Assembly (NCBI GenBank): GCA_964350815.1
Contig: CAYGKW010000001.1
Coordinates: 156,120-220,119, forward strand
Direction: 5' to 3'
Length of the DNA: 64,000 nucleotides
Source of the DNA: an uncultured Rhizobiaceae bacterium
GTDB lineage: Bacteria; Pseudomonadota; Alphaproteobacteria; UBA7879; VGCX01
Below are positions 17,553 to 64,000 of the stretch, one piece after another (the stretch's first letter is position 1; every line of letters begins with the position of its first letter). The notes under the pieces are model-generated. The model was not told the origin of the DNA, made no database searches, and was given only the letters and a program-made list of their open reading frames with translations. The position numbers and the translations under genes are program-made.

Positions 17553-17556
17553 AATT

Positions 17557-37432: not shown

Positions 37433-37481
37433 AGTCCCTCTCCTTTCTCTCTTTTTAATATTAAACAATAAACCAAGCCAT

Positions 37482-37745: not shown

Positions 37746-37779
37746 TAATTATCTTTTAAAGACTAAAAATAATGGACTG

Positions 37780-44898: not shown

Positions 44899-44919
44899 TT
44901 AACCTATCTTAGCCTTTGT

Positions 44920-47037: not shown

Positions 47038-47242
47038 GATCACCCCCCTCTTTAACAGTCGTATTATTTTCAATAAAATTCATTAAGTCCGACAATCGAT
47101 ACTTTGCTAATCGCCCCACCTTGACCATCGGCAACCCATAACGTTTGTTACAAGCCCATACGGCCAAAGTACCTTCTGTTGTTCCTAAAAGTTCAGCTGC
47201 TTCTTTCCGATTGAGAAGCTTATTAGTTTGTTCTATTTTCAT
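47030..47242 (-). CDS. alpA: AlpA-family transcriptional regulator / excisionase (Phage_AlpA HTH)
   Basis: 70 aa, LLNRKEAAELLGTTEGTLAVWACNKRYGLPMVKVGRLAKYRLSDL, the classic prophage CP4-57 AlpA fold. Confidence 0.75.
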   Translation of the reverse strand: MKIEQTNKLLNRKEAAELLGTTEGTLAVWACNKRYGLPMVKVGRLAKYRLSDLMNFIENNTTVKEGGDHE

Positions 47243-47310
47243 AGGCTTTATTCCTCTTAAAGTTAAAACTACCTATGTTAATAATCATTCTGAATTGTTG
47301 AAAAAAGACC

Positions 47311-47324
47311 GTTCGCTAGCGAAC
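47311..47324. promoter_or_regulatory. 14-bp perfect palindrome GTTCGCTAGCGAAC upstream of alpA (candidate operator)
   Basis: Perfect dyad about 70 bp upstream of the alpA start codon, in an AT-rich intergenic region. Confidence 0.25.
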
Positions 47325-47630
47325 CTACCTAAAAATTTTAGAGGTTGGACTAGATAAGTTACCTGGAGGTTGTTTGTATTGGCGAAATAAGCAGCAGAGG
47401 TAGCAAATATAAATAAGAAAAGTTATGGATTTTTGTGCTAAAGTAACAGGATGAGTAGTAGTAGAAGTTAGCATTAGCCATCTTCAGTGATTCTTAATTA
47501 TTAAAAAGTTCACAGACAGCAATTTTACCACTTCTTGAAAGAAGTGAATTCAGATTCACTTTTTGTTTTTCTAGTGACAATTGAAGCTTTTGAGGGAACT
47601 GTGTATTTTTGTTAACTCTTAGTTCCTTTA

Positions 47631-48626: not shown

Positions 48627-49798
48627 TTTGACCTACCTTCCTCAGTCACATTCATAAGCATTGCGCTGGTGGCACGGTTAACTGATTCCCTTACTGGATC
48701 AATATTTAATCGAGCATAAATGGCTGTTGCTTGTTGTGTTTTGTGTCCTAAAGATTTCCCAATGACATAGCTGTTGGCTCCAGTGGCCGCTTGCCAGCTC
48801 CCTAATGTTCTTCGTAAATCATGCAATCTTAAGTCTGTCAGATTTGCTTCTTCTAATATTCTTTTCCAGACACGCTTTGGTTCTTCTAAGTGTCCTGACT
48901 GGCTAGTTTTACTGGGAAATACCCAATCATTTTCTTTATAGATATGGCGTTGACGAAGAATTTTGATAATGTCAGACGATAATGGAATAAGATGCGATTC
49001 CCCATTCTTTGTTTCTGGTATGTTCCAAGTCTCCTTATTAAGGTCCACATCTTGCCAACGCATACTTAAGACATTTCCCTTGCGAGCCCCTGTTAAAAGA
49101 CACACCATAAAAAAGTCTGTAAATAATTTATTGGGTTCTTTTGCCAGAGCTTGAAAGAAACGTGATAGTTCTTCTCCTTGTAAAAATCTTTCGCGACTTT
49201 TTTCTTTAAACTTCTTAATACCTTCGACAGGTGATTTTCCATCCCATCCCCAATCCATGGCTTTATTAAACATAACCCCTAAAAGAGCCAACATACGATT
49301 TGCAGCATAAACTCCATTTACCTTTCCTACATTTGAATGGAGTGCTTCAAAGTCAGCTTTATGAAAACTAGAAATCTTTCTTTTCTTTAAATGAGATAAA
49401 TAAAGGCGATAAATATTTTCATCATTCTTCCAAGACTTTTTATGAAGCTTTGCATGTCCCTCTAGGTATCTTTCAAAAAGCTCCCCAAAAGTTAACTCTG
49501 CTTTTAATTTTGATTTCTCACGATTAGGATTTTTGCCTAGAGAAATTTGTGAATTTATACTTGAAGCTTGTCCACGTGCATTTTCAACAGACAGATCAGG
49601 ATAATACCCCAACATAATACGTTCAGGCCGACCTTTAACCTTTCGGTAGACATAAAAAGTTTTTGTTCCTTTGCTTGTAACGGAAATAATAAGAGCACGT
49701 ACTTTTGTATCATAATAATAAAATCTCTTCCCTTGTGGTGGTAAAGGAAGAACCTCCAAAGCTTTCTTAGTAAAGTTAATTTTGTTATCAGTCTTCAT
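48623..49798 (-). CDS. int: Tyrosine site-specific integrase (phage/P4-type)
   Basis: 391 aa. C-terminal catalytic box ...HDLRRTLGSWQAATGANSYVIGKSLGHKTQQATAIYARL (R..HxxR..Y). N-terminal arm-binding-like domain. Adjacent to attR. Confidence 0.9.
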   Translation of the reverse strand: MKTDNKINFTKKALEVLPLPPQGKRFYYYDTKVRALIISVTSKGTKTFYVYRKVKGRPERIMLGYYPDLSVENARGQASSINSQISLGKNPNREKSKLKAELTFGELFERYLEGHAKLHKKSWKNDENIYRLYLSHLKKRKISSFHKADFEALHSNVGKVNGVYAANRMLALLGVMFNKAMDWGWDGKSPVEGIKKFKEKSRERFLQGEELSRFFQALAKEPNKLFTDFFMVCLLTGARKGNVLSMRWQDVDLNKETWNIPETKNGESHLIPLSSDIIKILRQRHIYKENDWVFPSKTSQSGHLEEPKRVWKRILEEANLTDLRLHDLRRTLGSWQAATGANSYVIGKSLGHKTQQATAIYARLNIDPVRESVNRATSAMLMNVTEEGRSK

Positions 49799-49800
49799 TT

Positions 49801-49820
49801 GGTGCTACCCTGGTGCTACT
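49801..49820 (+). repeat. Inner 20-bp direct repeat GGTGCTACCCTGGTGCTACT (copy 2)
   Basis: Identical to 35823..35842. Begins 3 nt upstream of the integrase ATG (minus strand). Confidence 0.5.
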
Positions 49821-49938
49821 CTCTAGGTTAAATTTAGTTAATTTCAGTTGACTTTAGTAAAGAGTGGAATACCATAAAATATAAGGCTGGTAAAGAGAAA
49901 TTAAACTTTGTTAAATTTGAGAAAATGTATGACTTTAA

Positions 49939-49985
49939 GACTCTTAATCAGCGGGTCACAGGTTCGAATCCTGTAGTGCCCACCA
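49939..49985 (+). repeat. attR: 47-bp duplicate of the tRNA-Lys 3' half
   Basis: Exact copy of 35727..35773. Similarity to the tRNA stops abruptly 5' of the anticodon loop. Confidence 0.8.
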
Positions 49986-50168
49986 TTCAAATTAAAATTT
50001 GTCAGTCTATTCTAGAACTATTGGTAAAAGAGAGAGACATCAATGAAAAACCAATTTCTAAAATTTATATTTTTGATATTTTTCACCACTGGATTTTTCC
50101 ATAGCACAGATGCCAAAAACAACTGCAACAATAGCCTTCCAATAAACTTAGATAAAATAAGAGTATAA

Positions 50169-51203
50169 TATAATCTACAAGCCTTTGCCGTTGGTTTTGT
50201 TGACATTAAAAATATTAACACTTGGGTTATTAGTAATGATACTCCAAGGAGTAAACCCAGACTTAAAAGCAAATGGCTTTTTGCCTCTAACACAAAACCG
50301 ATGACAGCCCTACTTATTGCAAAATTGGTGGAACAAGGTAAACTTACTTGGTCATCAAAAATCAAAGATATCTTTCCTGAGCTTTCAAATCAATCTCTTG
50401 CAGAGTTCAATGAAATCACAGTTGAACAGCTTCTGTCACATTCAGCAGGGCTGGCTAAAGATAGCCCTGGTATATTTGAATCTCTCGAAAACTGGCCAGG
50501 ATATATTAAACATATTGATACAATGAACGCGCACATTTTAGAAAATAAAAACCGACCCCTTACAGATCAACGATTAGATGTTCTGGCAGATTTTGGAAAG
50601 AAAAAACTTAAACACCCCAAAAATGAATTTCATTATTCAAATGTTGGATATGTTATTTTGGGGGCAATTATAGAAAAGGTGACCGGCCTTAGTTATGAAA
50701 CAGCGATGACCAAGCTTTTATTTAAACCTTTAGGAATAGACTCAGCTGAATTCAAACTTTCTGATGACTCTGTCCCTCCTACTAAACTTAATGGGCATTA
50801 CTTTACAAATCAACCTAGGCAAAAAGTTATGCTACTTGCTTTATGAATCCAGCGGGTGGGGTTTATATTGCAATAAATGATTGGGCTTTTTTCATCCAAG
50901 AACTTATTAATGGGCTTGCAGGTAAAAGTACTTACTTGAAAAAAGAAACTTATAAAAAAGTTATTTACACCGGTTATTAATGACAGGACACTAACACACA
51001 AAATTATTGATGGAGAATTATCCCATCTTGGAACAGATCTTTTATCAACTTCTATTTCAAAAATAGACATCAAAAAGAAAACTGGGGTCTTGTTTGTCAT
51101 AAACAGAGGGTTTAATTATTCTCTTCCCCCCAGTCAGTATAAACAGACCCCAGTGTTTAAAGCTTTTAATGAGACAAAGTTACTGCCATTTCATGAATTA
51201 TAA
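50169..51203 (+). pseudogene. Beta-lactamase / PBP4*-family serine hydrolase pseudogene (frameshifted, no start codon)
   Basis: SxxK motif in FASNTKPMTA (about 50275..50300). Reading continues through frameshifts near 50846 and 50980 (NPAGGVYIAINDW..., then ...KKTGVLFVINRGFNYSL). No ATG upstream in frame after the stop at 50166. Confidence 0.5.
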
Positions 51204-51334
51204 AACATTATGCTTCTTAACTATCAATATCTGAGTCCATTTGTTGAAAATCCACCACCTTCGTTTACTAGAAAAAAACCGGGGCCACCGGCTTTTTATC
51301 TACATTGAACTTTAATGGAATCTCATGACAGTGT

Positions 51335-51703
51335 TTAAGGCACTTTCTTAAAGAACCACTTAGCTGACTTAACGTCTCTTTTGTGAGAAAGCATAAAGTC
51401 AATGGTATCCCCTTTTTTATCAATGGCCCTATAGAGATATTTCCACTGACCTTTAACTTTGATATACGTTTCATCGATTCTCCAGGAAAATCCTATAGGC
51501 TGACTATACCAACGAAGTTTTTTTCAAACTCAGGCGCATATCTCTGAATCCAACGGTAGATAGTTGTATGATCAACTTTAACACCCCATTCTGACATCAT
51601 TTCAGATAATTGACTAACTCAAAGGATATCTCAAATACCATCTCATACACTGCAAGATAACTTCTGGAACAAAATGTCGCCACTTAAAGGCCATTGGCTT
51701 CAT
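51335..51703 (-). pseudogene. IS6-family (IS26-like) transposase remnant: N-terminal half only, with an internal stop and a frameshift
   Basis: Minus-strand translation gives MKPMAFKWRHFVPEVILQCMRWYLRYPLS*, then ..MMSEWGVKVDHTTIYRWIQRYAPEFEK and IDETYIKVKGQWKYLYRAIDKKGDTIDFMLSHKRDVKSAK. These are collinear with the IS26 Tnp N-terminal half. No intact IRs were found. Confidence 0.6.
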
Positions 51704-52068
51704 AAACAAATCCCCTATTTATGATTAGATCCTTAGATCTTACCTCATTAATCTTTTTTTGCAACAGACCCATGAAACGGATAGATAGATAGATACATAA
51801 AAAAAGGATGCCATGCATAAGCAAACAAAAATAACTTTGGAAGACGCAATCGCGGAGAAGATATCTTTTACAGAATCAAGACTATTTTTGATAGAACCTT
51901 CATTTCTAGGATTTGGAAAAATCAAAAAATTGAAGCGAAGCTGATTGCTAATATACTGAATAAAATGACAAGCCTTAGTATATCAATAACGCAATAATAT
52001 CCCAAACCTTTGGAAATATTGTCCTTCAACCGTTTTTTGATTTACAACACAAAGCAAAGCCAAAAAAG

Positions 52069-52200
52069 ATGCTTTAGGATTCAGTAGCGTTTAATTTTAT
52101 AGTTGACATCTTAATAGCAAGGCATAGAATTAGCTATGATTTTTAAGGAGACAGGTGATGAGTAATTTATCAAAATTTAGGAAAGAACTAAAAAACTTTT
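52069..52200 (+). repeat. About 130-bp leader repeat (copy 1): the promoter plus the first codons of the GT-C gene, duplicated at 62050..62185
   Basis: About 85% identity between the two copies, including TTGACA-N16-TAGAAT and the ATGATGAGTAATTT(A/G)TCAAAATTTAGG start region. Confidence 0.6.
52103..52130 (+). promoter_or_regulatory. Sigma70-like promoter (TTGACA-16 nt-TAGAAT) upstream of the polysaccharide locus
   Basis: Near-consensus -35 and -10 hexamers, 25 bp before the ATG at 52155. A TTGATA/TAGAAT counterpart is conserved in the duplicate at 62090-62117. Confidence 0.4.
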
Positions 52201-53825
52201 TTGCGTTTATGATAACTAAGACGATTAAAAATGTGAAAACGTGGAATAGTTATGGGATTATAAACTCTCCCCTGTTTTGGATATTGGGTTTATACATTTT
52301 TATGTATCTTCCACAATGTTTTATCATGCTTGAAGACATGAACATTGTTAGAGCCTTTGAGGTAGATCCAGGCTCTATTCTTGACGCTATTAATAAGTTA
52401 TTTAAAGGACCTTATTATTACAGCATGTACAACGGCTACCACTCATATTACTATGGCTGGACATTCTTTAGTATAAATTTTTTCGTGATTTTGCCCATAA
52501 AGGTACTTTTTTCCATATTCAACATTACAAGTCCTGAAACCATAACATTTGTGGTCCGCTTTGTGTTATTTTTGATTGGCTTTGGATCGGTTTTTGCTTT
52601 TTATAATCTCGTTAAGAAAGCTACGGGAAAAACCTTTGTTGCCGCTTTTTTAAGCCTTTTTATAGTTGTGTCGACAGTAGCATCCAAAGGATATTATTTT
52701 ATACACCCTGAGACGACAGGTGTTCTATTTTCTATTACTGGCTGTTTTGCACTTTTAGAATTTATAAGTCAGAAAAAAAACCAAAACCAATGGTTTATAT
52801 TTGGTCTAACAGCTTTGGTTTTATCAGCATTGTCAAAACAGATATTTCTTATTATTTCTTTTCCCTTGTTAGCACTATTTTTATATTTTCGGGCGCAAAC
52901 CCAAAACAAGAGTGTTTTAGCCTTTCTAAAAACGAACCAGTTTAAAAATAATTTTTTCTTTACATGCACCTGGTCACTCTTACTTTTATTCATGGTACAT
53001 CCTTACGCATTTATTGCGCCATACAAATTTATAAAATCTCAGTTAGATACTATTATTTATCATACAAGTGTCGAACATACTTTTTCCTTAACAGAGACTA
53101 TGAAAATATGGTGGATAACTATAATTCATAGGATGCCTTTATATTCTTTTACCGTAATTTCAGCGCCCTTATGCTTATTTGTATGTTATAAAAGTCGCCA
53201 AATATATAAAAAATCCAAAATTTTGTATACGACTAATCTTTTAAGCATAATAGGCATATTATTTGTTGTTAGCTATATTGAAAGAGCTTTTCCAGGCCAA
53301 GTCTTTTATTTGTATCCTTTATTGCCATATGTATTATTAAACATTGGTGCAATCATATGGTATGTATTGATGGTTATCAGTAGGCCTGTGCGGTTTATAA
53401 TAACCTGTTTTATTTTTTGCATTGGTTTTCTGTTTTTAGCATTTAATTATATGTCTACAAATCAAATATTAAAAAAACGCTTAGATTATAAGGATTCAAT
53501 GGTTTATAAAGTATACAACTATATTCGTAGTGAATTGCCAAAAAATTCACGAATTGCACATGATCATGTTATCGCAGTGCCTTTAAGTGATGGATATAAA
53601 TCTTGTCACTATTGGAACTCCTGCGCTTCTTTAAATGCAATTAAAGATTATGATCCTGATTATATTATTTTCAATAAGGAGTTTAATATTAATGGTAAGG
53701 CACATAATAACACAGAAAATCTCAAGAAGTATATTTTACGACATGATTATAAAATTAGGAAAGTTTTAAATATGAAAGAAAACCCAACGGTCAGTATTTC
53801 AATTTATGAAAGGCCCAAAAATTAA
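52155..53825 (+). CDS. Polytopic membrane glycosyltransferase, GT-C fold (ArnT/PMT-like), putative
   Basis: 556 aa with 11 or more predicted TM helices, an acidic ED pair in the first loop (MLEDMN) and a soluble C-terminal domain. Confidence 0.45.
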   Translation: MMSNLSKFRKELKNFFAFMITKTIKNVKTWNSYGIINSPLFWILGLYIFMYLPQCFIMLEDMNIVRAFEVDPGSILDAINKLFKGPYYYSMYNGYHSYYYGWTFFSINFFVILPIKVLFSIFNITSPETITFVVRFVLFLIGFGSVFAFYNLVKKATGKTFVAAFLSLFIVVSTVASKGYYFIHPETTGVLFSITGCFALLEFISQKKNQNQWFIFGLTALVLSALSKQIFLIISFPLLALFLYFRAQTQNKSVLAFLKTNQFKNNFFFTCTWSLLLLFMVHPYAFIAPYKFIKSQLDTIIYHTSVEHTFSLTETMKIWWITIIHRMPLYSFTVISAPLCLFVCYKSRQIYKKSKILYTTNLLSIIGILFVVSYIERAFPGQVFYLYPLLPYVLLNIGAIIWYVLMVISRPVRFIITCFIFCIGFLFLAFNYMSTNQILKKRLDYKDSMVYKVYNYIRSELPKNSRIAHDHVIAVPLSDGYKSCHYWNSCASLNAIKDYDPDYIIFNKEFNINGKAHNNTENLKKYILRHDYKIRKVLNMKENPTVSISIYERPKN

Positions 53826-53828: not shown

Positions 53829-54827
53829 TTAAAAATTAATTCGTTCCTCTTCTATTACTAAAGGTCTTTTCCTTACCTGAGCATGAATGCTAACCACATA
53901 CTCTCCCATTAGACCCAAAAAGAAAAGATTAATACCGCTTAAGAAGAACATTCCTACTATGAGGGTTGGAATACCTGCTACAGTAGCAGGATTAAAAAAG
54001 ACAGCTACAAACAATTGGTACAAGCCGTAAAGGAAACTAAGAAAAGAAATGAGGAGACCTCCAAACAGGCAAGCGCGGATAGGCATTTGACTATGACCAA
54101 CAAGTCCATTTAAACTAGTATTTATCATATCAAAAAAGCTTGTTTTTGACTCACCTTTTTCACGAACACCCCACCGATAGGAAACCCCGATTGTTTTAAA
54201 CCCACATTCTGCAATCATACCGCGTATATAAGGCTCACAATCATCAAATTGACGGAGGACTTCTACAACTTTTTTATCTATGAGCTGATACTCACCTGCA
54301 TCATGTGGGATATCATATCTAGCCATTCGATTTACTAGGCGATAATGAAGCTTGCGCAGTGTTTCAATGATGGCAGATTCCGAACGGTTTATCCGTTGGC
54401 CATAAACAATATCATATCCCTTTTCCCAATACTTAATAAATTGGGGTAGAACCTCTACAGGATCTTGTAAATCAACAGGAAGCATTGGGACCACAGCATC
54501 TCCTCTAGAGTTCAAAAGGCCATTGAACATAGACCTGAAAACTCCAAAATTACGTGAGTTTAAAATGACTTTTACATTTTTGTCTTTTTTCGCGATGGCA
54601 CGCAAAGCATCAACTGTATGATCTTTAGATCCATTATCGCAAAAAATATGTTCATAATCATAATCTAACAAGGTGTTTTCAAAAATTTGTTTAATTGCCA
54701 TATAGCATTTATTCACAGAATCTTCTTCATTATAAACAGGGGTTATAATGCTTATAAGAGTCCTTTTTATGGCCGTCCTTTTATTTTTTTTAAACTGGTT
54801 TTTTACAGTGTTTTTAGCGCTTGACAT
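53829..54827 (-). CDS. GT2 polyprenyl-phosphate glycosyltransferase (ArnC/GtrB/DPM1-like)
   Basis: N-terminal GT-A domain (ISIITPVYNEEDSV, DNGSKD, DLQD) plus two C-terminal TM helices; 332 aa. Confidence 0.7.
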   Translation of the reverse strand: MSSAKNTVKNQFKKNKRTAIKRTLISIITPVYNEEDSVNKCYMAIKQIFENTLLDYDYEHIFCDNGSKDHTVDALRAIAKKDKNVKVILNSRNFGVFRSMFNGLLNSRGDAVVPMLPVDLQDPVEVLPQFIKYWEKGYDIVYGQRINRSESAIIETLRKLHYRLVNRMARYDIPHDAGEYQLIDKKVVEVLRQFDDCEPYIRGMIAECGFKTIGVSYRWGVREKGESKTSFFDMINTSLNGLVGHSQMPIRACLFGGLLISFLSFLYGLYQLFVAVFFNPATVAGIPTLIVGMFFLSGINLFFLGLMGEYVVSIHAQVRKRPLVIEEERINF

Positions 54828-54982: not shown

Positions 54983-55378
54983 ATGACTGAAACAAATAAA
55001 TGGATTATTAGTACATTTTTGATATTACTTGCTGTAATACTAATTGCAGGAAGTCAGATAATTCTTAAGACACAAATGGAAAAAGTCCCCACTTTTCCCT
55101 CTTTATTGAACGAGCGGGCTTTGTGGGTATTAAGCCTATTCTTAAATCCTTCGGTTGTTCTTGTTTTTATATGTGTTTTTTTATCTGGTTTAATTTGGAT
55201 AATTGCTCTAACAAATGTACCGTTATCTTATGCCTACCCTTTTACAAGTTTAACATTGCCTCTGATATTATTATTAAGTTATGTATTTTTAGAAGAAACA
55301 CTGGGGTTATCTCAAGTGTTAGGAACGCTACTAATTGTTAGTGGTGTTATTATTACGTCAACAAAAATAGTAGGATAA
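54983..55378 (+). CDS. Small 4-TM membrane protein (ArnE/ArnF/GtrA-like flippase candidate, SMR/DMT-like)
   Basis: 131 aa with four hydrophobic helices, adjacent to the GT2 and GT-C genes. Confidence 0.45.
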   Translation: MTETNKWIISTFLILLAVILIAGSQIILKTQMEKVPTFPSLLNERALWVLSLFLNPSVVLVFICVFLSGLIWIIALTNVPLSYAYPFTSLTLPLILLLSYVFLEETLGLSQVLGTLLIVSGVIITSTKIVG

Positions 55379-55381: not shown

Positions 55382-56170
55382 ATGAAAGCAGTTATTCTTG
55401 CAGGTGGCTTTGGGACAAGATTGGGAGATATAACAAGAGAAATCCCGAAACCAATGGTGAGAGTTGGGGGCAAGCCTATTCTATGGCATGTTATGAAAAC
55501 TTATGCGACTTATGGTATAAAAGACTTTATTGTATGTTTGGGTTATAAAGGGCACGTTATTAAACAATATTTTGCAAATTATTATTTGAATAATTCTGAT
55601 GTTGTTTTTAACCTTGGAACAAATGAGGTTAAATATTTACGGAATTCAGGCAATGACTGGCGAGTTTCTCTAATCGAAACTGGGCCTGACTCACAAACTG
55701 GTGGTCGATTGGGCCGTTTACGCAATATGCTGAAAAATGAGGAATATTTTTGCTTTACGTACGGAGATGCCGTAAGTGATTTAGATATTGGTGCGACATT
55801 AGAATTTCATAAAAAAAGGAATGCGATTGCTACCGTAACAGGTGTCCGTCCGCAAGGACGTTTTGGAGCGCTAAAAATCTCAGATACAGATCGTGTAGTA
55901 AGTTTTCAAGAAAAGTTGTTGGGTGACGGAAGCTATGTAAATGGTGGGTTTTTCGTACTATCAAATAAAGTCTTTAATTATATAAATGGAGATAATTGTA
56001 TTTGGGAGCGGGGACCTTTGCCACAGCTGGCTAAGGAAAATAATCTGCACGTTTACAAGCATGATGGCTTTTGGCAATGTATGGATACCTTGCGGGATAA
56101 AGAAGAGCTTGAAAAACTTTGGGATGAAGGAGATGTGCCATGGATTTCTGGCATAAAAAAAGGGTCTTAG
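55382..56170 (+). CDS. rfbF: Glucose-1-phosphate cytidylyltransferase
   Basis: Near-collinear match to Salmonella RfbF (MKAVILAGGFGTRL..., GGRLGRLRN, GFWQCMDTLRDK). 262 aa. Confidence 0.93.
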   Translation: MKAVILAGGFGTRLGDITREIPKPMVRVGGKPILWHVMKTYATYGIKDFIVCLGYKGHVIKQYFANYYLNNSDVVFNLGTNEVKYLRNSGNDWRVSLIETGPDSQTGGRLGRLRNMLKNEEYFCFTYGDAVSDLDIGATLEFHKKRNAIATVTGVRPQGRFGALKISDTDRVVSFQEKLLGDGSYVNGGFFVLSNKVFNYINGDNCIWERGPLPQLAKENNLHVYKHDGFWQCMDTLRDKEELEKLWDEGDVPWISGIKKGS

Positions 56171-57207
56171 TATTAGGCCACACAGGTTTTAAAGGTGGAT
56201 GGTTGAGTGAGTGGCTTATTAAGTCAGGAGCACAACTTTGTGGCTACTCTCTAGAGCCATATACCAATCAGTCTTTATTTGAAGACTTGGAATTAAAAGA
56301 AAAGATGGAAAGTCATATTTCTGATGTTCGTGATGCTAAAAAGATAGCCGAGGTTGTTCAAGAATTTCAACCTGAAATCATTTTTCATATGGCCTCTCAA
56401 CCTATTGTATCTATTGGTTTTAATGATCCTGTTGGAACATATGAAACAAATATCATGGGAACAGTAAATGTGCTGGAGTCAATCCGTCACCTTGAAAGTA
56501 TCCGTTCTGTTGTAGTGGTAACAAGTGATAAATGTTACGAAAATAAAGGAAATAACACGGCTTTTTCAGAGACAGATCGTCTAGGTGGATTGGACCCCTA
56601 TAGCAATAGTAAGGCTTGCCAAGAACTGGTTGTGCAATCTTACAGAGATTCGTTTTTTTTCAAGGAGAGAGGTGTACGCATTGCCACCGCACGAGCTGGT
56701 AATGTTATAGGTGGGGGAGATTGGGCATTAAACAGATTGATTCCAGACTTAGTACGCGCATTTAAAAATAACGAAAGTGCTGTAATTCGCAACCCTTCTT
56801 ATACACGTCCCTGGCAGCATGTCTTGGATCCATTAAATGGCTATATAATGTTAGCTAAAAAATTGTATGAAGAAGATGGTTTTGACTACGCGGATAGCTG
56901 GAACTTCGGCCCTGATGAGACACACTGTATTCCTGTATCAGAAGTTGTGAAAATCGCTACTGAAACATGGTCAAATGATGCAAAATGGCATCACGAAAAA
57001 GTTGAGTTAGGTAAAGAATGTTCTTTATTACGGTTAAACAGTTTGAAAGCCAAAAACAAATTAGGCTGGCATCCCTTATTTGACGTTTATACTGCAATTA
57101 AAATGAGTATGGACTGGTATAAAATTTCTTCACAAAAAGATAATATTAAGCTTTTAACAACGTATCAAATTAAAAAAATTGAAAATTTACTGTCAATTAA
57201 CATATAA
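56140..57207 (+). CDS. rfbG: CDP-glucose 4,6-dehydratase
   Basis: RfbG-like along its full length (KRVLVLGHTGFKGGWLSEWL, YSNSKAC, RPWQHVLDPL). 355 aa. Confidence 0.92.
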   Translation: MDFWHKKRVLVLGHTGFKGGWLSEWLIKSGAQLCGYSLEPYTNQSLFEDLELKEKMESHISDVRDAKKIAEVVQEFQPEIIFHMASQPIVSIGFNDPVGTYETNIMGTVNVLESIRHLESIRSVVVVTSDKCYENKGNNTAFSETDRLGGLDPYSNSKACQELVVQSYRDSFFFKERGVRIATARAGNVIGGGDWALNRLIPDLVRAFKNNESAVIRNPSYTRPWQHVLDPLNGYIMLAKKLYEEDGFDYADSWNFGPDETHCIPVSEVVKIATETWSNDAKWHHEKVELGKECSLLRLNSLKAKNKLGWHPLFDVYTAIKMSMDWYKISSQKDNIKLLTTYQIKKIENLLSINI

Positions 57208-57237
57208 TAAAATTGGTTTTTTATAAAGGATTAAATT

Positions 57238-58347
57238 ATGAAAGAAATTTCTTCTGCTGGTCCATGGATTGAACAAAAAGAATTAGATTATGTCTCTGAT
57301 GCTTGTCAAAACGGGTGGTATAACAACTGGCATGAATATCTAGATCGTTTTGAAGCAGCTTTGTGTAAAGCAACTAAAAATAAATATTGCCTTTTAACCT
57401 CCAGTTGTACTGGTGCACTTCATATTTCAATGTTGGCTTTGGGTGTAGGGCCTGGGGATGAGGTGATTGTACCAGAAGTTACTTGGGTTGCGACAGCAGC
57501 TTGTGTAAAGTATGTAGGGGCAACTCCTGTTTTTGTTGATGTAGAGAAAGATACTTGGTGTATGGATCCTGAAAAAGTAAAGGCGGCGATAACCGCTAAA
57601 ACCAAAGCAATTATTCCCGTCCATATGTATGGGCACCCAGCAGATATGGACGCAATTAATGAAATTGCAAAAGAACATGGTTTAATGGTGATCGAAGATG
57701 CGGCACCATCTATTGGCTCAAAATACAAAGGTCGACCTACTGGCAGTCTGGGGTTGGCAGGGGCTTTTAGTTTTCAAGGCGCAAAGCCAATCACAACAGG
57801 GGAAGGTGGAGCATTGCTTACTAATGATGATAATTTTTATGACCGTGCTTATTATTATTGGGACCATTGTCGTGATAAGGAAAAAGTTTTATTCAATACT
57901 GACATTGGCGTTAAATATAAAATGTCGAACATCCAGGCTGCTCTGGGTTTGGGACAAATTGAACGTTTGGACGAAATTATTGAAAAGCGTCGTCAGATTT
58001 TTTTCTGGTATCAAAAACGTTTGTGCGATATCCAAGGGTTGTGCTTAAATGTAGAACGGGAAGGTTGCTATAATAATTATTATGTTCCAACACTCATATT
58101 GGATGGTCAGTTTAATATTTCTACAGAAGAATTGATGTTGGGTATGAATAACAAAGGGGTTCGTAATCGTCCTTTTTTCCGTCCGATAAGTAAGTTTCCG
58201 ATGTTTGCTCCATCTGAAACTCCTGTTGCAGATTTTCTAAGTCAAAACGGTATAAATCTACCAGCTGCTGCGTCATTAATTGAAAGCGATGTTGAGTATT
58301 CTTGTAATGTTATACGAGAGCTTTTAGAACAAAACTATAAATCATAG
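57238..58347 (+). CDS. DegT/DnrJ/EryC1/StrS-family PLP-dependent sugar aminotransferase
   Basis: 369 aa. The active-site lysine is present in SFQGAKPITTGEGG. Confidence 0.8.
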   Translation: MKEISSAGPWIEQKELDYVSDACQNGWYNNWHEYLDRFEAALCKATKNKYCLLTSSCTGALHISMLALGVGPGDEVIVPEVTWVATAACVKYVGATPVFVDVEKDTWCMDPEKVKAAITAKTKAIIPVHMYGHPADMDAINEIAKEHGLMVIEDAAPSIGSKYKGRPTGSLGLAGAFSFQGAKPITTGEGGALLTNDDNFYDRAYYYWDHCRDKEKVLFNTDIGVKYKMSNIQAALGLGQIERLDEIIEKRRQIFFWYQKRLCDIQGLCLNVEREGCYNNYYVPTLILDGQFNISTEELMLGMNNKGVRNRPFFRPISKFPMFAPSETPVADFLSQNGINLPAAASLIESDVEYSCNVIRELLEQNYKS

Positions 58348-58357
58348 GTTATGTTAA

Positions 58358-59017
58358 ATGACTGAGTTTAAAGCCCAACTTATTCATACCTTCAAAGCTT
58401 TGAAATATGGAAAATCAGGCAAAGTTTTGATAAGGTCATGTACCTCACCTATTTGTCTACTTGTTCCTTTTGTTCAAGATGATATTTCTGATGCTAATAA
58501 AATAGCAATATTATCGAAATGGCGCCTTGATAACATTCACGGCTTTCCAAGTATATTTAATATAACTGATAAAGGTACTCGTAAATGGGCGCAGACAGAG
58601 CTTATTAATCGTGAGGACCGTATTCTCTTTTTTGTCACTGATGAAAAAGGGGAACCGCTTGGTCATGTAGGTCTTTCTTCTTTTGATTATGCAAATGAAA
58701 CTTGTGAAATTGATAACATCGTCCGCGGAGAAAAAGATGGGCCAAAAGGTATTATGCAACAAGCTGTTAATGTTATGTTAGATTGGTCCTATGAAACTTT
58801 AAAGCCAAAAAAAATTCACCTCAGAACTTTTAATGACAATCCACGCGCCTTGGCTTTGTATTACCGTCTTAAATTTAAGCCAGTGGAGCTCATTCCCTTA
58901 ACAAGGACGGAGGCACCCGGTGTTATAGAATGGAAAAAATCTAATGAAAATGATATTATTGATCGCTTTTATATTGTAATGTGCCATAAAAATAATACTT
59001 ATAAATTAAGGAGATAA
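58358..59017 (+). CDS. GNAT-family N-acyltransferase (probable amino-sugar N-acylase)
   Basis: 219 aa. Acetyl-CoA-binding-like segment IVRGEKDGPKGIMQQAVNVMLDWSYETL and a GNAT fold pattern. Confidence 0.45.
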   Translation: MTEFKAQLIHTFKALKYGKSGKVLIRSCTSPICLLVPFVQDDISDANKIAILSKWRLDNIHGFPSIFNITDKGTRKWAQTELINREDRILFFVTDEKGEPLGHVGLSSFDYANETCEIDNIVRGEKDGPKGIMQQAVNVMLDWSYETLKPKKIHLRTFNDNPRALALYYRLKFKPVELIPLTRTEAPGVIEWKKSNENDIIDRFYIVMCHKNNTYKLRR

Positions 59018-59019
59018 TA

Positions 59020-60246
59020 ATGAAAAATGATTTAGTCTATAAAAAAGAAGATTTTATACATGTACCCTATGGTATGACAGTTCATGGTGATGAAGAAGAA
59101 CGTGCTGTGGTTGAAGTTATACGTACATCAACTCAGATGGGTAAAAATGTGTGCGAAATGGAAAGTCGGATAGCCAAAATGTTTAATAAAAAACATGGGA
59201 TTATGGTGAATTCTGGATCTTCCGCACTGTACCTTGCTATTGAAGGATTGAATCTCCCTAAAAAAAGTGAAGTTATTACTCCAGCATTGACTTTTTCAAC
59301 GACTGTAGGCTGTATAGTAAAAAACGATTTAATCCCGTCTTTTATTGATTGTGAAACAGATACATACTGTATTGATGTTAATAAGATTGAGGATGCTATT
59401 ACAGAAAAAACTAGTGCAATGCTAGTTCCAAATCTATTGGGCAACATGCCTGAATGGGATAAGCTGGCTGCAATTGCAAAAAAATATAACCTAAAAGTAA
59501 TTGAAGATTCAGCCGATACGGTAGGTGGAGAATTTAAAGAAGGATCCAGTGGTGCTTATTCTGATATTTCAATTACTAGTTTTTATGGGTCACACGTGAT
59601 TAATTGTGCAGGAAATGGGGGCATGCTTTGTATAAATGATGATGATCTTAAAGACCGTATAAAACTTCTTCGTTCTTGGGGTCGAAGTTCGTCACTTTAC
59701 GTTGAATCTGAAGCAATTGAGAATCGATTTGATATCAATATTGACGGTGTAGATTACGATAAGAAATTTGTTTTTGAAGCAATAGGTTATAATCTTGAGC
59801 CTAATGAAATGGGTGCGGCATTTGGTTTGGTCCAACTGAATAAATTGCAAAAAAATATTGATCTACGTATTAAGTACTTTAATGCGCAATATGAATTTTT
59901 TAAAAAATACGAAGAGTATTTTATATTGCCACGTCAGTGTAAAAACACACGCACTGGTTGGCTTGCTTTTCCATTGATTGTTAAAGAAAATTCTCCATTC
60001 ACACGTCAAGAAATGCAAATCTTTTTAGAAAGACGCAATATCCAAACTCGTGTTGTTTTTACAGGAAATATTTTGCGTCAACCTGGTTTCAAAAACATTG
60101 AATGCCGCGGTGTTGCTTCTGACTTTACAGGAGCGGACCGTATCATGAATGGAGGAATTCTTCTTGCCTGCCATCATGGTTTAACAGATAAAATGTTAGA
60201 GCATGTGCATGAAAGTTTTAATTCATTCATAAACCAATTAAAATAA
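59020..60246 (+). CDS. DegT-family sugar 3-dehydratase (RfbH/E1/ColD-like; His replaces the Schiff-base Lys)
   Basis: C-terminus TRVVFTGNILRQPGFKNIECR...TGADRIMNGG is collinear with the Salmonella RfbH tail. The active site reads SFYGSHVINCAGNGG (His, no Lys). The Cys-rich 2Fe-2S insertion of RfbH (CYCAPGCDNTC) is absent. Confidence 0.65.
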   Translation: MKNDLVYKKEDFIHVPYGMTVHGDEEERAVVEVIRTSTQMGKNVCEMESRIAKMFNKKHGIMVNSGSSALYLAIEGLNLPKKSEVITPALTFSTTVGCIVKNDLIPSFIDCETDTYCIDVNKIEDAITEKTSAMLVPNLLGNMPEWDKLAAIAKKYNLKVIEDSADTVGGEFKEGSSGAYSDISITSFYGSHVINCAGNGGMLCINDDDLKDRIKLLRSWGRSSSLYVESEAIENRFDINIDGVDYDKKFVFEAIGYNLEPNEMGAAFGLVQLNKLQKNIDLRIKYFNAQYEFFKKYEEYFILPRQCKNTRTGWLAFPLIVKENSPFTRQEMQIFLERRNIQTRVVFTGNILRQPGFKNIECRGVASDFTGADRIMNGGILLACHHGLTDKMLEHVHESFNSFINQLK

Positions 60247-60257
60247 AAAACAGTTCT

Positions 60258-61055
60258 ATGTTCAAATCTTCTGATATTAGAAAAACAATTTTGAAAATGG
60301 GCTATTCTGGTGCGACTGCACATTTGGGTTGTGCGTTATCAATTGTAGAAATATTAGCCGTACTCTACCGCAACTATCTAAATTTAAATGATAAAACCCC
60401 GAATTCACCTGATCGTAATTATTTAATTTTAAGCAAAGGACATGGTGTTATGGCTTTATATGCATGTCTTTTCGAACTTGGGTGGGTATCAGAGCAACAT
60501 ATTGCAGATTATTTTAAAAATGGTACATCTTTAAAAGGCTTAGGTGATGCGCATGTTCCAGGAGTAGAGGTGACTGCGGGCTCTCTGGGACATGGTTTGT
60601 CGGTAGGTGTTGGCATGGCTATGGCAGCTAAACGTAGTAAAACAGGACAAAAAGCTTTTGCTATTGTGGGTGATGGGGAGATGAATGAAGGTACCATGTG
60701 GGAGGCACTTTTATTTGCCTCCCACCATAAGCTTGATAATCTTTGTATAATTGTGGATGAAAATAAATATCAGGCAATGGGTATGACAGATGATGTTTTA
60801 GACCTGAAGAATTTAGCCGATAAGTTTTCAGCTTTTGGGTGCGAAACTTTAAAATGTGATGGCCATAATGAACAAGCTCTAAACACTGTTATTAATAAAT
60901 TGATATCGGTTGAGGATGGAAAACCTAAAGCCATTATTGCTAGGACAGTAAAAGGTAAAGGCATAAGTTTTATGGAAAACAATAATATCTGGCATTACAA
61001 AAAATTGAATAAAGGCACGTATGAAAAAGCATTAGAGGAGGTTACAAAAGAATGA
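60258..61055 (+). CDS. Transketolase, N-terminal (ThDP-binding) subunit
   Basis: 265 aa with GHGxxAL (SKGHGVMALYA) and the ThDP motif GDGEMNEG. Confidence 0.85.
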   Translation: MFKSSDIRKTILKMGYSGATAHLGCALSIVEILAVLYRNYLNLNDKTPNSPDRNYLILSKGHGVMALYACLFELGWVSEQHIADYFKNGTSLKGLGDAHVPGVEVTAGSLGHGLSVGVGMAMAAKRSKTGQKAFAIVGDGEMNEGTMWEALLFASHHKLDNLCIIVDENKYQAMGMTDDVLDLKNLADKFSAFGCETLKCDGHNEQALNTVINKLISVEDGKPKAIIARTVKGKGISFMENNNIWHYKKLNKGTYEKALEEVTKE

Positions 61056-61963
61056 GAGAACGCTTTTCAAATCTTTTAACCAAAGCCGCAAAGGAAGATG
61101 AACGCATCTTGTTATTAACAGGGGATCACGGCTATGCTTTGTTTGATGAATTTCGAAGCGCTTACCCAGATCGTTTTATAAATTGTGGGATTGCAGAACA
61201 AAATATGCTTGGTGTAGCTGCCGGTCTAGCAAAATCGGGCTTTCGGCCAATCGTTTATGGTTTAGCTGCCTTTGTTCCTATACGTGTTTTAGAACAGATA
61301 AAAATTGATATTTGCTATGAAAAATTGCCTATAATAATTATTGGGGATGGTGCAGGGGTCGTCTATGGACACTTAGGAACTAGTCACCAATGCAATGAAG
61401 ATGTTGCAGCCCTAAGGGCTGTTCCAAATATAAATATTTATACTCCGAGTGACCGTGCTGAATTGAACTATTGCTTTCACCATATGCTTGAATCGGCCAC
61501 CCCCTCTTATCTTCGTTTTGGTAAATCTGATCTTGGGGATGTTCACCAAGAAATTCCTAATGCACCTCAAGGTGATCCTATTGAGGTTATAAATAATAAA
61601 TCTGAAAATGCAATTATTGCTTCTGGATCTATGGTAAAACCATCCTTATCAGTATCAGAAAAAATAGGTAATATTGACGTTTGGAGTATGCCTATTATTA
61701 CACCAACTAATAAAGAAAAAATAATGGGAATTCTAACTCGTTATCAAAATGTTTATACTATGGAAGAGCATTCTATTCATGGAGGCATTGGGAGCCTTAT
61801 TTCTGAAATATCTGCGCAAATGGAAAACCCCGTACGTGTAATTTCATTTGGTATTGAAAATAAGTTTTCAGATTATTGTGGAGATTATTACTATCTAATG
61901 CAAACACATGGCTTGGATGTTAAAAGTCTAATCGATAAAATTCAAAGTCTTTCTTTAAAATAA
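61052..61963 (+). CDS. Transketolase, C-terminal (pyrimidine-binding) subunit
   Basis: 303 aa. GIAEQNMLGVAAGLA and GxxGxSHQ match the transketolase Pyr domain and C-terminus. Overlaps the upstream subunit by 4 nt. Confidence 0.85.
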   Translation: MRERFSNLLTKAAKEDERILLLTGDHGYALFDEFRSAYPDRFINCGIAEQNMLGVAAGLAKSGFRPIVYGLAAFVPIRVLEQIKIDICYEKLPIIIIGDGAGVVYGHLGTSHQCNEDVAALRAVPNINIYTPSDRAELNYCFHHMLESATPSYLRFGKSDLGDVHQEIPNAPQGDPIEVINNKSENAIIASGSMVKPSLSVSEKIGNIDVWSMPIITPTNKEKIMGILTRYQNVYTMEEHSIHGGIGSLISEISAQMENPVRVISFGIENKFSDYCGDYYYLMQTHGLDVKSLIDKIQSLSLK

Positions 61964-62271: not shown

Positions 62272-62850
62272 TTATATCAGCCCAAGTTCGTATTCGATGG
62301 CATTGCAAAGCATTTGCCCAATCATAATATGCATTTCTTGAATTCGTGCTGTTGTATTTGAGGGAACGATCAATAGAGGGCCTTTAATATCTTTGATATC
62401 TCCACCATCTTTACCACTTAAGGCACCATATTTAATACCCATTTTATCGGCTTGTTCAAAAGCCTTGATAACATTTGGGCTTTTGCCAGATGTGGTTATT
62501 CCAATAATAAAATCTTCGGGTTTTGCAAGGGCCTCGATTTGTCTTGAAAATAAAAATTCAAAACCAAAATCATTTCCAATTGCTGTTAAAGCAGACGTAT
62601 CTGTACTTAAAGAAATTGCTGCAATAGCCACACGGTTTTCTTTATAGCGAACAGTTAATTCTGTTGCTAGGTGCTGTGCGTCTGATGCAGATCCGCCATT
62701 CCCCATAAGAATTATTTTTCCGCCTTTTTTAAGAGCAGATACACAAGTGTTAACCAATGAATAAAAACTATCTTCGACAGCTTTTTCAGTATCATTTAAA
62801 ACTTTCTGGTGTTCTAAAAATTCTGATTTGTAAAATTCTTTAAGATTCAT
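62272..62850 (-). CDS. gmhA: Phosphoheptose isomerase (SIS domain)
   Basis: 192 aa, GKIILMGNGGSASDAQHLATEL... typical of GmhA. Confidence 0.85.
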   Translation of the reverse strand: MNLKEFYKSEFLEHQKVLNDTEKAVEDSFYSLVNTCVSALKKGGKIILMGNGGSASDAQHLATELTVRYKENRVAIAAISLSTDTSALTAIGNDFGFEFLFSRQIEALAKPEDFIIGITTSGKSPNVIKAFEQADKMGIKYGALSGKDGGDIKDIKGPLLIVPSNTTARIQEMHIMIGQMLCNAIEYELGLI

Positions 62851-63608
62851 TTTTCACCTATTTTATTTTTAGTTGCGTTAAAATATTTAGGGCCAAGAGT
62901 TTTAATGTCACCAAATTCTTTAACCTTGCCTTTTTCCAAAATAAGTATTTTATTACACATTTCATAAACAAGTTCTTTGCTGTGGGAAACAAAAAGGAGA
63001 ATACTGGAATTTTCCACAAGTTCCATCATTTTTTTTCTGGCTTTTTCAATAAATTTTTTATCCCCAGCCCCAAAAAACTCATCAATCAACAAAATGTCAG
63101 AACTCATAAAGCTAATGACAGAAAAAGCCAAACGTACGCGCATTCCAGAAGAATAGGTGCGAACAGGTATATTTACAAAATTTCCCAACTCTGAAAATTC
63201 TATGATTTTATCCATGCGGGTTTCTATTTGTTTTTTCGTAGCCCCCAAGACATAGGACATACAAAATATATTTTGAATGCCTGTTAATTCATCATTCATT
63301 CCCAAGGTAATATCCAATAATGTTGAGATTTTTCCTTCCACCTTTATTTGGCCTGAAGACGGTTCATAAATACCTGCAACTGTCCTTAGGAATGTTGACT
63401 TTCCTGCACCATTTCCGCCCACGATTGCCACACGGTCACCATGGTTAAACTCTAGAGTAATATCATTCAAAGCATGGATTGAAACATCTTTTCCAGATTC
63501 AATCCTACCGCCTGTTGCAGCTTTAAGTAATTTCAAACGAAAATCGTTTGCACTTACATCATAAAGTGGATAGTGGAGGTTGACCTTATCTAGAATAATT
63601 TTTGACAT
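62847..63608 (-). CDS. Polysaccharide-export ABC transporter ATP-binding protein (KpsT/Wzt-like)
   Basis: Walker A GGNGAGKST, signature YSSGMRVRLAF and Walker B ILLIDE. 253 aa, with no extra C-terminal domain. Confidence 0.8.
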   Translation of the reverse strand: MSKIILDKVNLHYPLYDVSANDFRLKLLKAATGGRIESGKDVSIHALNDITLEFNHGDRVAIVGGNGAGKSTFLRTVAGIYEPSSGQIKVEGKISTLLDITLGMNDELTGIQNIFCMSYVLGATKKQIETRMDKIIEFSELGNFVNIPVRTYSSGMRVRLAFSVISFMSSDILLIDEFFGAGDKKFIEKARKKMMELVENSSILLFVSHSKELVYEMCNKILILEKGKVKEFGDIKTLGPKYFNATKNKIGEK

Positions 63609-63612
63609 TTAA

Positions 63613-64000
63613 TTATATCCAATAAATAACTCTGTGCCTAAACCTAGAAAACACCATAAAAGCAAAAAGTGAAATTATAAAGGTTAAAGCAGCAGCTAAA
63701 GATAGTTCAATAATTCCTATTGGTTGGCCTAACAAAGGCTTTCTAAGAAGATCAAGAAAAATGGCAAAGGGGTTTAAGTAAACTAAATAATATTTACTTC
63801 CAAACTGAGAGGCATCCCATAAAACCGGAGTAACCAGCATTCCTACTGACATTAAAGATTTTACTAAAGGTCCAAAGTCTCTGAACCTTGCAACAACAAA
63901 ACTTAAAATCAAACTTACGCCTATTGCTGCCACCAAAGTAAGTATCAACGCTGGAAGAAAAAAAAGGGTATAAAAATTTGGCCAGTTGCCCACAAGAATC
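63613..64000 (-). CDS. ABC-2 type polysaccharide-export permease (KpsM/Wzm-like), partial; continues beyond the window end
   Basis: Hydrophobic ABC-2 C-terminal region immediately upstream of the ATPase gene. The ORF is open to the window edge. Confidence 0.6.
   Translation of the reverse strand, partial: ILVGNWPNFYTLFFLPALILTLVAAIGVSLILSFVVARFRDFGPLVKSLMSVGMLVTPVLWDASQFGSKYYLVYLNPFAIFLDLLRKPLLGQPIGIIELSLAAALTFIISLFAFMVFSRFRHRVIYWI

Follow-up and report, generated by a model that had tools for sequence, protein, structure and literature searches.

We found that the segment 52155-61963 of a 64-kb stretch of DNA from an uncultured low-GC alphaproteobacterium (contig CAYGKW010000001.1; the window hereafter means all 64,000 nucleotides analysed) holds ten genes which, on balance, we read as one unit that would synthesise a cytidine diphosphate (CDP)-activated, C-4-branched, amino-acylated 3,6-dideoxyhexose and bring it to the bacterial surface. 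The comparative evidence supports a variant of the yersiniose-type pathway with two non-orthologous replacements, in which an E1 homolog free of an iron-sulfur (Fe-S) cluster would stand in for the E1/E3 pair and a split transketolase (TK) for YerE, and in which amination and N-acylation would take the place of reduction. More tentatively, the product may represent a novel class of sugar, a 3,6-dideoxyhexose with a 1-acylaminoethyl or 1-acylamino-2-hydroxyethyl branch at C-4, and its synthesis may involve two firsts, an envelope-glycan TK with a nucleotide-linked ketone as its acceptor and a CDP-specific 3-dehydratase working free of both Fe-S cluster and E3. Genes were called by open reading frame (ORF) finding, followed by Pfam and NCBIfam profile scans of the window proteins; all support for the pathway is comparative, from sequence and gene context, and the functions given are predicted ones. 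The host's position among uncultured low-GC Alphaproteobacteria follows from its LigA relatives, of which the nearest with a name share just 54-58% identity.

The unit is larger than the span of seven genes (55382-61963) covered by the original prediction, all of which ORF calling and the profile scans place on the plus strand at the coordinates listed here, and it takes in a GT-C-like membrane protein, a family 2 glycosyltransferase (GT2) and a small EamA protein. The E-values of the gene assignments range from 1e-25 to 1e-137, which excludes chance. The ten genes are (aa, amino acids; PLP, pyridoxal 5'-phosphate):

52155..53825, + strand: probable GT-C glycosyltransferase (PMT/ArnT-like), polytopic membrane protein of 556 aa; its homologs pass PMT or PMT_2
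53829..54827, - strand: GT2 of the polyprenyl-phosphate sugar synthase type (PgfS/ArnC/GtrB-like); Pfam Glycos_transf_2
54983..55378, + strand: small EamA/DMT protein of 131 aa, candidate flippase (ArnE/ArnF-like); Pfam EamA
55382..56170, + strand: RfbF, glucose-1-phosphate cytidylyltransferase; TIGR02623 equivalog
56140..57207, + strand: RfbG, CDP-glucose 4,6-dehydratase; TIGR02622 equivalog
57238..58347, + strand: DegT-family PLP aminotransferase of 369 aa, with Lys183; Pfam DegT
58358..59017, + strand: GNAT acyltransferase of 219 aa; Pfam Acetyltransf_3
59020..60246, + strand: predicted DegT-family 3-dehydratase of 408 aa, with His192; E1/RfbH homology
60258..61055, + strand: N-terminal (PP, diphosphate-binding) subunit of the split TK (TK-N); Pfam Transketolase_N
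61052..61963, + strand: C-terminal (Pyr and C domain) subunit of the split TK (TK-C); Pfam Transket_pyr and Transketolase_C

From rfbF through the TK-C gene the intergenic distances are -31, 30, 10, 2, 11 and -4 bp, a spacing that points to one transcription unit. The small EamA gene stops 3 bp ahead of rfbF, and the GT2 gene (53829-54827) is divergently oriented relative to the rfbF operon. A scan for promoters and terminators gave a signal no better than that of shuffled sequence.

Both enzymes at the head of the pathway pass curated equivalog cut-offs, RfbF that of TIGR02623 (366.4 bits against 300.25, residues 1-254 of 262) and RfbG that of TIGR02622 (455.9 bits against 278.45, residues 3-347 of 355), which agrees with the earlier proposal that the pair gives CDP-4-keto-6-deoxyglucose. 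We predict with high confidence that RfbF makes CDP-glucose and that RfbG makes CDP-4-keto-6-deoxyglucose from it.

The 408-aa protein had been described as collinear with RfbH in its C-terminus, with His in place of the Schiff-base Lys and without the Cys-rich Fe-S insertion of E1, and thus as a ColD-like enzyme on a CDP substrate; the description holds in each of these respects. Among solved structures its closest relative is the Yersinia E1 (3bcx, 201.6 bits), followed by ColD (2gms, 148.9 bits), and the alignment with RfbH/E1 is collinear over residues 14-406 and, in a second comparison, over residues 40-404. His192 ('SFYGSH') aligns with E1 His220, the position altered in the 3bb8 H220K variant, and is invariant, together with the Cys-free stretch, in 16 diverse homologs from different phyla. 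The possibility that a Lys is retained in a shifted alignment, which the original prediction had raised against itself, is excluded by the alignment to E1 and to these 16 homologs, in which no usable Lys lies nearby. We take the [2Fe-2S] ligands of E1 to be Cys193, Cys251, Cys253 and Cys261. The 408-aa protein lacks them, with the E1 cluster-Cys segment RDCYCAPGCDNTCKKRF corresponding to 'RSSSLYVE-SEAIENRF' in its sequence (within it, E1 RDCYCAPGCDNTC to 'RSSSLYVE-SEAIE'), and no Cys was found over residues 204-307 or 27 residues before His192.

Three nucleotide-sugar 3-dehydratases have been characterised, namely E1 (CDP substrate, Fe-S, in need of E3), whose iron-sulfur motif is formed by four cysteines, ColD (guanosine diphosphate (GDP) substrate, no Fe-S, hydrolytic) and SpnQ (thymidine diphosphate (dTDP) substrate, Fe-S) (2022 review, PMC8987622). 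Given these known mechanisms, His192 and the lack of [2Fe-2S] ligands point to an E1 homolog able to work only in the ColD way. ColD, the GDP-4-keto-6-deoxymannose 3-dehydratase of the colitose pathway, shares with it the His for Lys, the lack of an Fe-S cluster and the lack of a dedicated reductase, so that the hydrolytic, glutamate-regenerated mechanism is the only known option (PMC8987622). The two differ in setting, GDP-mannose for ColD and CDP-glucose for the window enzyme, which is also the closer of the two to E1 by the bit scores above; the genes of the CDP-glucose enzymes RfbF and RfbG adjoin, and neither gmd nor manC occurs in the cluster. The RfbH equivalog (NF011936) gives 302.6 bits, below its cut-off of 423. 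In our view the 408-aa protein is likely a CDP-4-keto-6-deoxyglucose 3-dehydratase dependent on pyridoxamine 5'-phosphate (PMP) and PLP, with a ColD-like mechanism.

When scanning one genome per species, we observe relatives of the 408-aa protein in 560 species genomes, so the enzyme is not a rarity; 81 loci were tabulated, the 80 best and the window's own contig (L001). The family keeps 63-76% identity across phyla and mostly lies directly after rfbF and rfbG (in 60 and 58 of these 81 loci, respectively). It is also found with RmlC-like and short-chain dehydrogenase/reductase (SDR) genes of the kind that characterises plain 3,6-dideoxyhexose pathways. A crude regular-expression scan for the plant-type ferredoxin motif detected no E3-type reductase in the window or within ~8 kb in the 80 related loci. 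In loci of Flavobacteriales and Salibacteraceae (L010, L020, L022, L030, L036, L037, L048, L055, L056, L077, L080) the Fe-S-free dehydratase adjoins an RmlD-like reductase, and the surrounding 6-8 kb contain neither rfbF nor rfbG. We also observe E1-type 3-dehydratases with the motif 'DWGRDCWCxxGxDNTCxKRF' in many TK or YerE-like cassettes (L083 6810-8135, L084 6282-7634, L091, L097, L099, L101, L104), which keep three of the four clustered E1 cysteines, vary at the position of the non-ligand Cys257, and have no E3-like gene seen beside them.

The two last genes of the operon had been read as the N- and C-terminal halves of a TK, and the profiles confirm this, with Transketolase_N (118.9 bits) in the first and Transket_pyr followed by Transketolase_C in the second. 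Their 4-bp overlap (ATGA) indicates that TK-N and TK-C are translationally coupled. The best solved relative of TK-N is the N chain of the split TK of C. hydrogenoformans (6yak, 179.8 bits), and TK-C matches 6yaj (143.9 bits) and DXS (2o1s, 103.3 bits); the pair scores below the transketolase equivalog cut-offs. Upon alignment with E. coli TktA, whose numbering is used here, E. coli DXS and the C. hydrogenoformans split TK, we find that the window TK shares with canonical TK (TktA; 6yak/6yaj) the fold families, the thiamine diphosphate (ThDP)/Mg2+ motif and the cofactor-binding and catalytic residues H26, H66, G114, D155, N185, E411 (the activating Glu411) and H473, and also keeps R358. It differs from canonical TK in that H461, D469, R520 and, usually in such enzymes, S385 are replaced (by G, L, K and A in the window TK-C), and in that the equivalent of H100 is deleted in its subfamily. 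In canonical TK, H461, R520, S385 and D469 are phosphosugar and acceptor contacts (to the substrate phosphate and the acceptor C-2 hydroxyl), and H100 is a donor contact. E. coli TktA and the split TK of C. hydrogenoformans both carry H461, D469 and R520, whereas DXS retains the latter two and shows Arg in place of H461. Across eight sugar-cluster TKs, position 461 is Gly in 8/8, 469 is Leu or His in 8/8, 520 is Lys in 6/8, and 385 is Ala, Gly or Ser, and among the 120 closest TK-C homologs the first is always Gly (120/120), the second Leu in 117 and Trp in 3, and the third always Lys (120/120). This joint loss of substrate-binding residues fits a different acceptor, for example a CDP-linked ketone.

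Gene context points in the same direction. In 7/7 sampled contigs (the Burkholderiales isolate Pandoraea, the cyanobacterium Pseudanabaena, a Spirochaetia metagenome-assembled genome (MAG) and four metagenomic or assembly contigs), genes of the closest TK-C relatives, with 52-63% identity, share their operon with genes for a sugar nucleotidyltransferase, a 4,6-dehydratase and an E1-like DegT protein. Another, more remote TK subfamily (32-45% identity) occurs in the same setting in L008, L011, L014 and L042, and TKs in CDP-sugar operons are also present in Gammaproteobacteria (Enterovibrio, Pseudomonadales). A tblastn search of TK-C against a plasmid collection without the Enterovibrio plasmid record returned generic split TKs only, at <=35% identity. 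Locus L008 (NZ_CM008325.1, plasmid pMJ1 of Candidatus Enterovibrio escicola) carries the order rfbF-rfbG-dehydratase-SDR-GT2-TKN-TKC and a PMT_2-type membrane protein on a 42.9-kb plasmid, and the presence of this complete cassette on pMJ1 indicates that the module is mobile.

In 29 of the 80 related loci the position of the TK is taken by a YerE-like protein of the TPP_enzyme_N/M/C architecture, and TK and YerE-like genes are interchangeable across otherwise equivalent cassettes. The best solved match of the YerE-like gene is 5ahk, which we take to be YerE of Pseudomonas protegens, with 440 bits against 315 bits for a genuine acetohydroxyacid synthase (AHAS; acetolactate synthase). The window TK has a different architecture, Transketolase_N plus Transket_pyr/Transketolase_C as opposed to a single TPP_enzyme_N/M/C chain. 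YerE adds an acetyl branch to CDP-4-keto-3,6-dideoxyglucose at the C-4 ketone (PMC9306805), and the window TK may work like YerE though it is not a member of that family. The proposal that the TK supplies a two-carbon branch is thus strengthened by the CDP-deoxyhexose operon context (7/7), the residue signature and the interchange with YerE-like enzymes, and the TK is likely a carboligase that forms a C-C branch on a CDP-keto-sugar and not a pentose-phosphate enzyme. Some of the YerE-like loci (L007, L025, L026, L027, L039, L041, L054, L058), which come from Legionella, Coxiellaceae and further gammaproteobacterial MAGs, share a recurrent cassette, rfbF-rfbG-dehydratase-SDR-YerE-like-short-chain dehydrogenase-3-dehydroquinate-synthase-like, situated roughly +1 to +7 kb relative to the dehydratase gene; the 3-dehydroquinate-synthase-like cyclase beside the YerE-like enzyme could indicate a carbocyclic or longer-branched sugar.

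Split-gene TKs have been proposed as hydroxyacetyl branching enzymes in miharamycin and amipurimycin biosynthesis, where they are uncharacterised and represented by 13 candidate sequences, all from Streptomycetes, and the branching of lipopolysaccharide (LPS) sugars has been assigned to YerE-like enzymes (2025 review, PMC12247030). These Streptomyces TKs have the same two-gene architecture as the window TK, lie beside sugar-modifying genes and have a keto-sugar as proposed acceptor (PMC12247030). They belong to actinomycete antibiotic clusters, whereas TKs of the window type are found in CDP-sugar operons of the cell envelope, and the two are likened here by description. A literature search for a TK in a CDP-sugar cluster (CDP-glucose, cytidylyltransferase, DegT) or in an O-antigen or dideoxysugar cluster found no relevant paper.

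Next, we investigated the aminotransferase and the GNAT, which had been named as a bona fide Lys-type aminotransferase with an acyltransferase, an assignment that we corroborate. The 369-aa protein matches Pfam DegT with 366.4 bits and has Lys183, in SFQGAKPITTGEGG, aligned with the catalytic Lys region of 7b0m. Its solved relatives are the uncharacterised 'sugar aminotransferase' 7b0m (281 bits), GDP-perosamine synthase 3bn1 (259 bits, second) and ArnB (198 bits), and it falls below all NCBIfam equivalog cut-offs, including those of LegC, PseC, ArnB and WecE. The GNAT passes Acetyltransf_3 (43.7 bits against 25.4) and Acetyltransf_1 (32.2 against 20.7), and is weakly similar to SpeG and PseH (PseH equivalog 20.9 against a cut-off of 93.1).

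Orthologs of the two proteins were traced in genomes and by a metagenome scan seeded with the GNAT. Aminotransferase orthologs (45-54% identity) adjoin a GNAT or are fused to it in every locus with enough flank, and the fusions, of about 600 aa, occur in both domain orders, GNAT-aminotransferase and aminotransferase-GNAT (L016 11220-13025, L043 11215-13014, L092, L101, L108 5291-7075). In loci with enough flank the pair is always accompanied by a ThDP enzyme, either a TK (the window, L042, L091, L092, L093/94, L095, L096, L097/98, L099, L104, L108) or a YerE-like enzyme (L016, L043, L089, L101). In other loci (L008, L011, L082, L083, L084, L107, L109, L110) the TK lies next to an extended SDR (~350 aa) and the aminotransferase-GNAT pair is absent, and no locus among those sampled has both the pair and an operon-adjacent extra SDR. 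L082, the closest relative of the window cluster (dehydratase 76%, TK-C 63% identical), belongs to this SDR type, and Pandoraea aquatica and Pseudanabaena biceps also represent it.

Reductases, transaminases or oxygenases are known to act on acetyl branches after their attachment (PMC9306805). Since a YerE-type enzyme turns C-4 into a tertiary alcohol, the branch carbonyl would be the sole carbonyl left. The simplest reading of the alternation is that the SDR and the aminotransferase with its GNAT provide alternative finishes of the same branched intermediate; for the branch carbonyl as the site of amination our confidence is moderate to low. The expectation of an 'amino and/or C-branched' sugar can be sharpened to one that is both, since the aminotransferase-GNAT pair accompanies a ThDP enzyme in every informative locus.

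Upon examining the genes for delivery, we observed that the 556-aa protein itself has no Pfam match, that a search of its family profile against PDB sequences was empty, and that a single-sequence AlphaFold2 model, with a predicted local distance difference test (pLDDT) score of 42.8, is unusable. Aligned from end to end, it shares 31% identity with a 559-aa protein of L082 (E 1e-92), which passes Pfam PMT (24.9 against 22.7), and it shares 32% (33% by tblastn) with a 539-aa protein of L008, which passes PMT_2 (33.1 against 26.1); such homologs sit in the same type of cluster. It is a probable GT-C enzyme that would move the sugar from a lipid carrier to a periplasmic acceptor. The GT2 protein matches Pfam Glycos_transf_2 with 88.4 bits and, over its full length, PgfS (210.5 bits) and ArnC (126.5 bits), both below the equivalog cut-offs, and among the 81 loci, L001 included, 31 have a GT2 ortholog (39-44% identity) after the dehydratase gene. 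The small EamA protein passes Pfam EamA (33.9 bits against 28.2) and has weak ArnF and ArnE matches below cut-off; a GtrA-family protein has the equivalent role in sister loci. The ArnC/ArnE-ArnF/ArnT and GtrA/GtrB/GtrC systems consist of parts like those predicted for the window, a GT2 that loads polyprenyl phosphate, a small flippase and a large GT-C. The window system differs from them in that its donor would be a CDP-sugar, in a single small EamA protein instead of the ArnE/ArnF pair, and in that all three proteins score below the Arn cut-offs.

Overall, these enzymes suggest a pathway of seven steps. After RfbF and RfbG (steps 1 and 2, both by equivalog-level homology), the 408-aa enzyme would strip the C-3 hydroxyl by the ColD route, that is, through a PMP Schiff base, elimination and enamine hydrolysis, with glutamate regenerating the PMP, and would yield CDP-4-keto-3,6-dideoxyglucose without an E3 reductase; this third step is proposed because His replaces Lys, the [2Fe-2S] ligands are missing and no E3-like genes were seen. 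In the fourth step the heteromeric split TK with ThDP would add a two-carbon acyl unit at the C-4 ketone, the task of YerE in yersiniose synthesis, for which we rely on the context, the interchange with YerE-like genes and the residue changes. The Lys183 aminotransferase would then turn the side-chain carbonyl into an amine, in place of a YerF-type reductase (step 5), and the GNAT would N-acylate the new amine (step 6). Finally, on the model of Arn and Gtr, the GT2 would load the sugar on polyprenyl phosphate, the EamA protein would flip it, and the GT-C-like protein would attach it to a periplasmic acceptor, for instance O-polysaccharide, core or lipid A (step 7).

The pathway of yersiniose A in Yersinia pseudotuberculosis (DdhA-D, YerE, YerF) follows the same logic from CDP-glucose through CDP-4-keto-6-deoxyglucose to CDP-4-keto-3,6-dideoxyglucose, and likewise proceeds by a ThDP-dependent two-carbon branch at C-4 and by tailoring of the branch carbonyl, on which the reductase YerF acts (PMC9306805). 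In contrast, the window 3-dehydratase has neither a [2Fe-2S] cluster nor an E3 (DdhD) partner encoded in the window, the proposed carboligase is a two-subunit member of the TK superfamily whereas YerE belongs to the decarboxylase/AHAS superfamily, the aminotransferase and GNAT would replace YerF, and delivery would be by a polyprenyl-phosphate GT2, a flippase and a GT-C.

Several points weigh against the branched amino sugar. The aminotransferase is most similar to ring C-4 enzymes such as GDP-perosamine synthase, and ring C-4 amination might apply; the alternation 'SDR or aminotransferase' is also seen at ring C-4 in ordinary deoxysugar pathways, where a reductase or an aminotransferase at C-4 is the classical pattern. 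The GT-C status of the 556-aa protein is reached solely by transitive homology, and uridine diphosphate (UDP)- rather than CDP-sugars are normal for GT2 enzymes of this kind. The sequence does not tell whether the donor of the fourth step would be a ketol, for a hydroxyacetyl unit, or pyruvate, for an acetyl unit. Elsewhere in the 64-kb window there is no TK/DXS-like match beyond the two genes, and no natural sugar with an acylamino-ethyl ('acetamidoethyl') branch is described in open-access text.

The first two of these points favour a reading in which the aminotransferase takes CDP-4-keto-3,6-dideoxyglucose or CDP-4-keto-6-deoxyglucose and aminates its ketone at ring C-4, and the GNAT acylates the product, giving an unbranched CDP-4-acylamino-3,4,6-trideoxy- or 4,6-dideoxyhexose, with the TK doing something else for the same glycan, such as making a precursor or acting on another substrate. 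The closest solved relatives of the aminotransferase, perosamine synthase and ArnB, do work at ring C-4, and the classical alternation matches. However, the ThDP enzyme would be left without an acceptor carbonyl, yet every informative locus that has the pair also has a TK or a YerE-like enzyme; YerE-type enzymes use exactly the C-4 ketone (PMC9306805), and the TK subfamily lacks the phosphosugar-binding residues that ordinary precursor supply needs. We regard ring amination, and with it the unbranched product, as unlikely.

Less probable still is a cluster with two products, in which the TK would turn part of the CDP-4-keto-3,6-dideoxyglucose into a C-branched keto or hydroxy sugar, and the aminotransferase and the GNAT would use the rest for a distinct 4-acylamino sugar. 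Polysaccharide loci often encode several sugars, and the single nucleotidyltransferase and single dehydratase make a shared precursor plausible, but the window operon has no reductase to finish a yersiniose-type sugar, and delivery could draw on no more than a single polyprenyl-phosphate GT2 and a single GT-C-like gene. The TK or YerE-like enzyme and the aminotransferase-GNAT pair are, moreover, tightly co-inherited in the absence of an SDR, which favours a single linear pathway.

It is very improbable that the 408-aa protein is a second aminotransferase or an inactive paralog, which would leave the 3-OH on the sugar. Transamination by SpnQ is possible when its reductase is absent (PMC8987622), and the 408-aa protein scores below the RfbH equivalog cut-off; however, it has His for the Schiff-base Lys, as do all three characterised 3-dehydratases, E1 and ColD are reported to show no aminotransferase activity under conditions where SpnQ does (PMC8987622), and the conservation of the family across phyla argues for an active enzyme. 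That the TK genes encode an ordinary pentose-phosphate transketolase merely beside a sugar operon, as the lack of another TK/DXS homolog in the window and the existence of functional split TKs such as that of C. hydrogenoformans (6yak/6yaj) would allow, is scarcely credible given their embedding in the operon (11-bp upstream gap, 4-bp mutual overlap), the CDP-deoxyhexose operons of homologs in unrelated phyla (7/7 contexts, and the plasmid example of L008), and the replacement of H461, D469 and R520 in 120/120 homologs.

Regarding the surroundings of the sugar cluster, GmhA-like, Wzt-like and Wzm-like genes lie 3' of it on the opposite strand, marking the neighbourhood as an LPS or polysaccharide region. 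At 62272-63993 (-) a gene for a GmhA-like sedoheptulose-7-phosphate isomerase (183.7 bits against a cut-off of 209.45) is followed by the genes of a Wzt-like and Wzm-like ABC exporter, which suggests an ABC-transporter-dependent O-polysaccharide locus adjoining the cluster. On the other side, an integrated element of ~14.2 kb spans 35698-49985, where the 3' part, from ~35731, of tRNA-Lys(CTT) (35698-35773) is directly repeated at ~49943-49985. The element contains a primase/AAA_25 protein (45091-47073) and a 2109-aa ORF (38258-44587) whose GC content is raised to 0.42-0.46, and carries a tyrosine integrase (48623-49798, -) that adjoins the second copy of the tRNA-Lys repeat. A location of the sugar cluster inside this integrase-bearing island was rejected, as the att repeat stops at ~49985, 2.2 kb ahead of the cluster. 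Between the two, 50000-52100 contains gene debris, namely a truncated ORF of the beta-lactamase family (50301-50846) and frameshifted transposase-like remnants (~51300-51700). Farther away, a type VI secretion cluster occupies 5500-20000, with TssC (6178-7659), TssF (9490-11298), ClpV/TssH (12311-14974) and VgrG (14985-17552) all above the NCBIfam cut-offs.

Each of the two enzymes, the TK and the dehydratase, occurs widely among the genomes of environmental bacteria, which include host-associated ones. If the proposed functions are true, ketone-accepting transketolases, which are sought as biocatalysts for chiral tertiary alcohols, would gain a substrate from normal physiology as well as a clearly delimited family that is easy to clone. 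An E1 homolog working in the ColD way would be a third solution to the C-3 deoxygenation of CDP-sugars, and would explain how hundreds of genomes make 3,6-dideoxyhexoses without E3. The alternation of a reductase with an aminotransferase and GNAT after the ThDP step provides a clear and directly testable rule. Finally, if the scheme holds, a new branched amino sugar would be present on the surface of several lineages, some of them host-associated or intracellular (Legionellales, Coxiellaceae, Rickettsiales-like MAGs, Endozoicomonas); decorations of this sort shape antigenicity and the way in which phages and hosts recognise bacteria.

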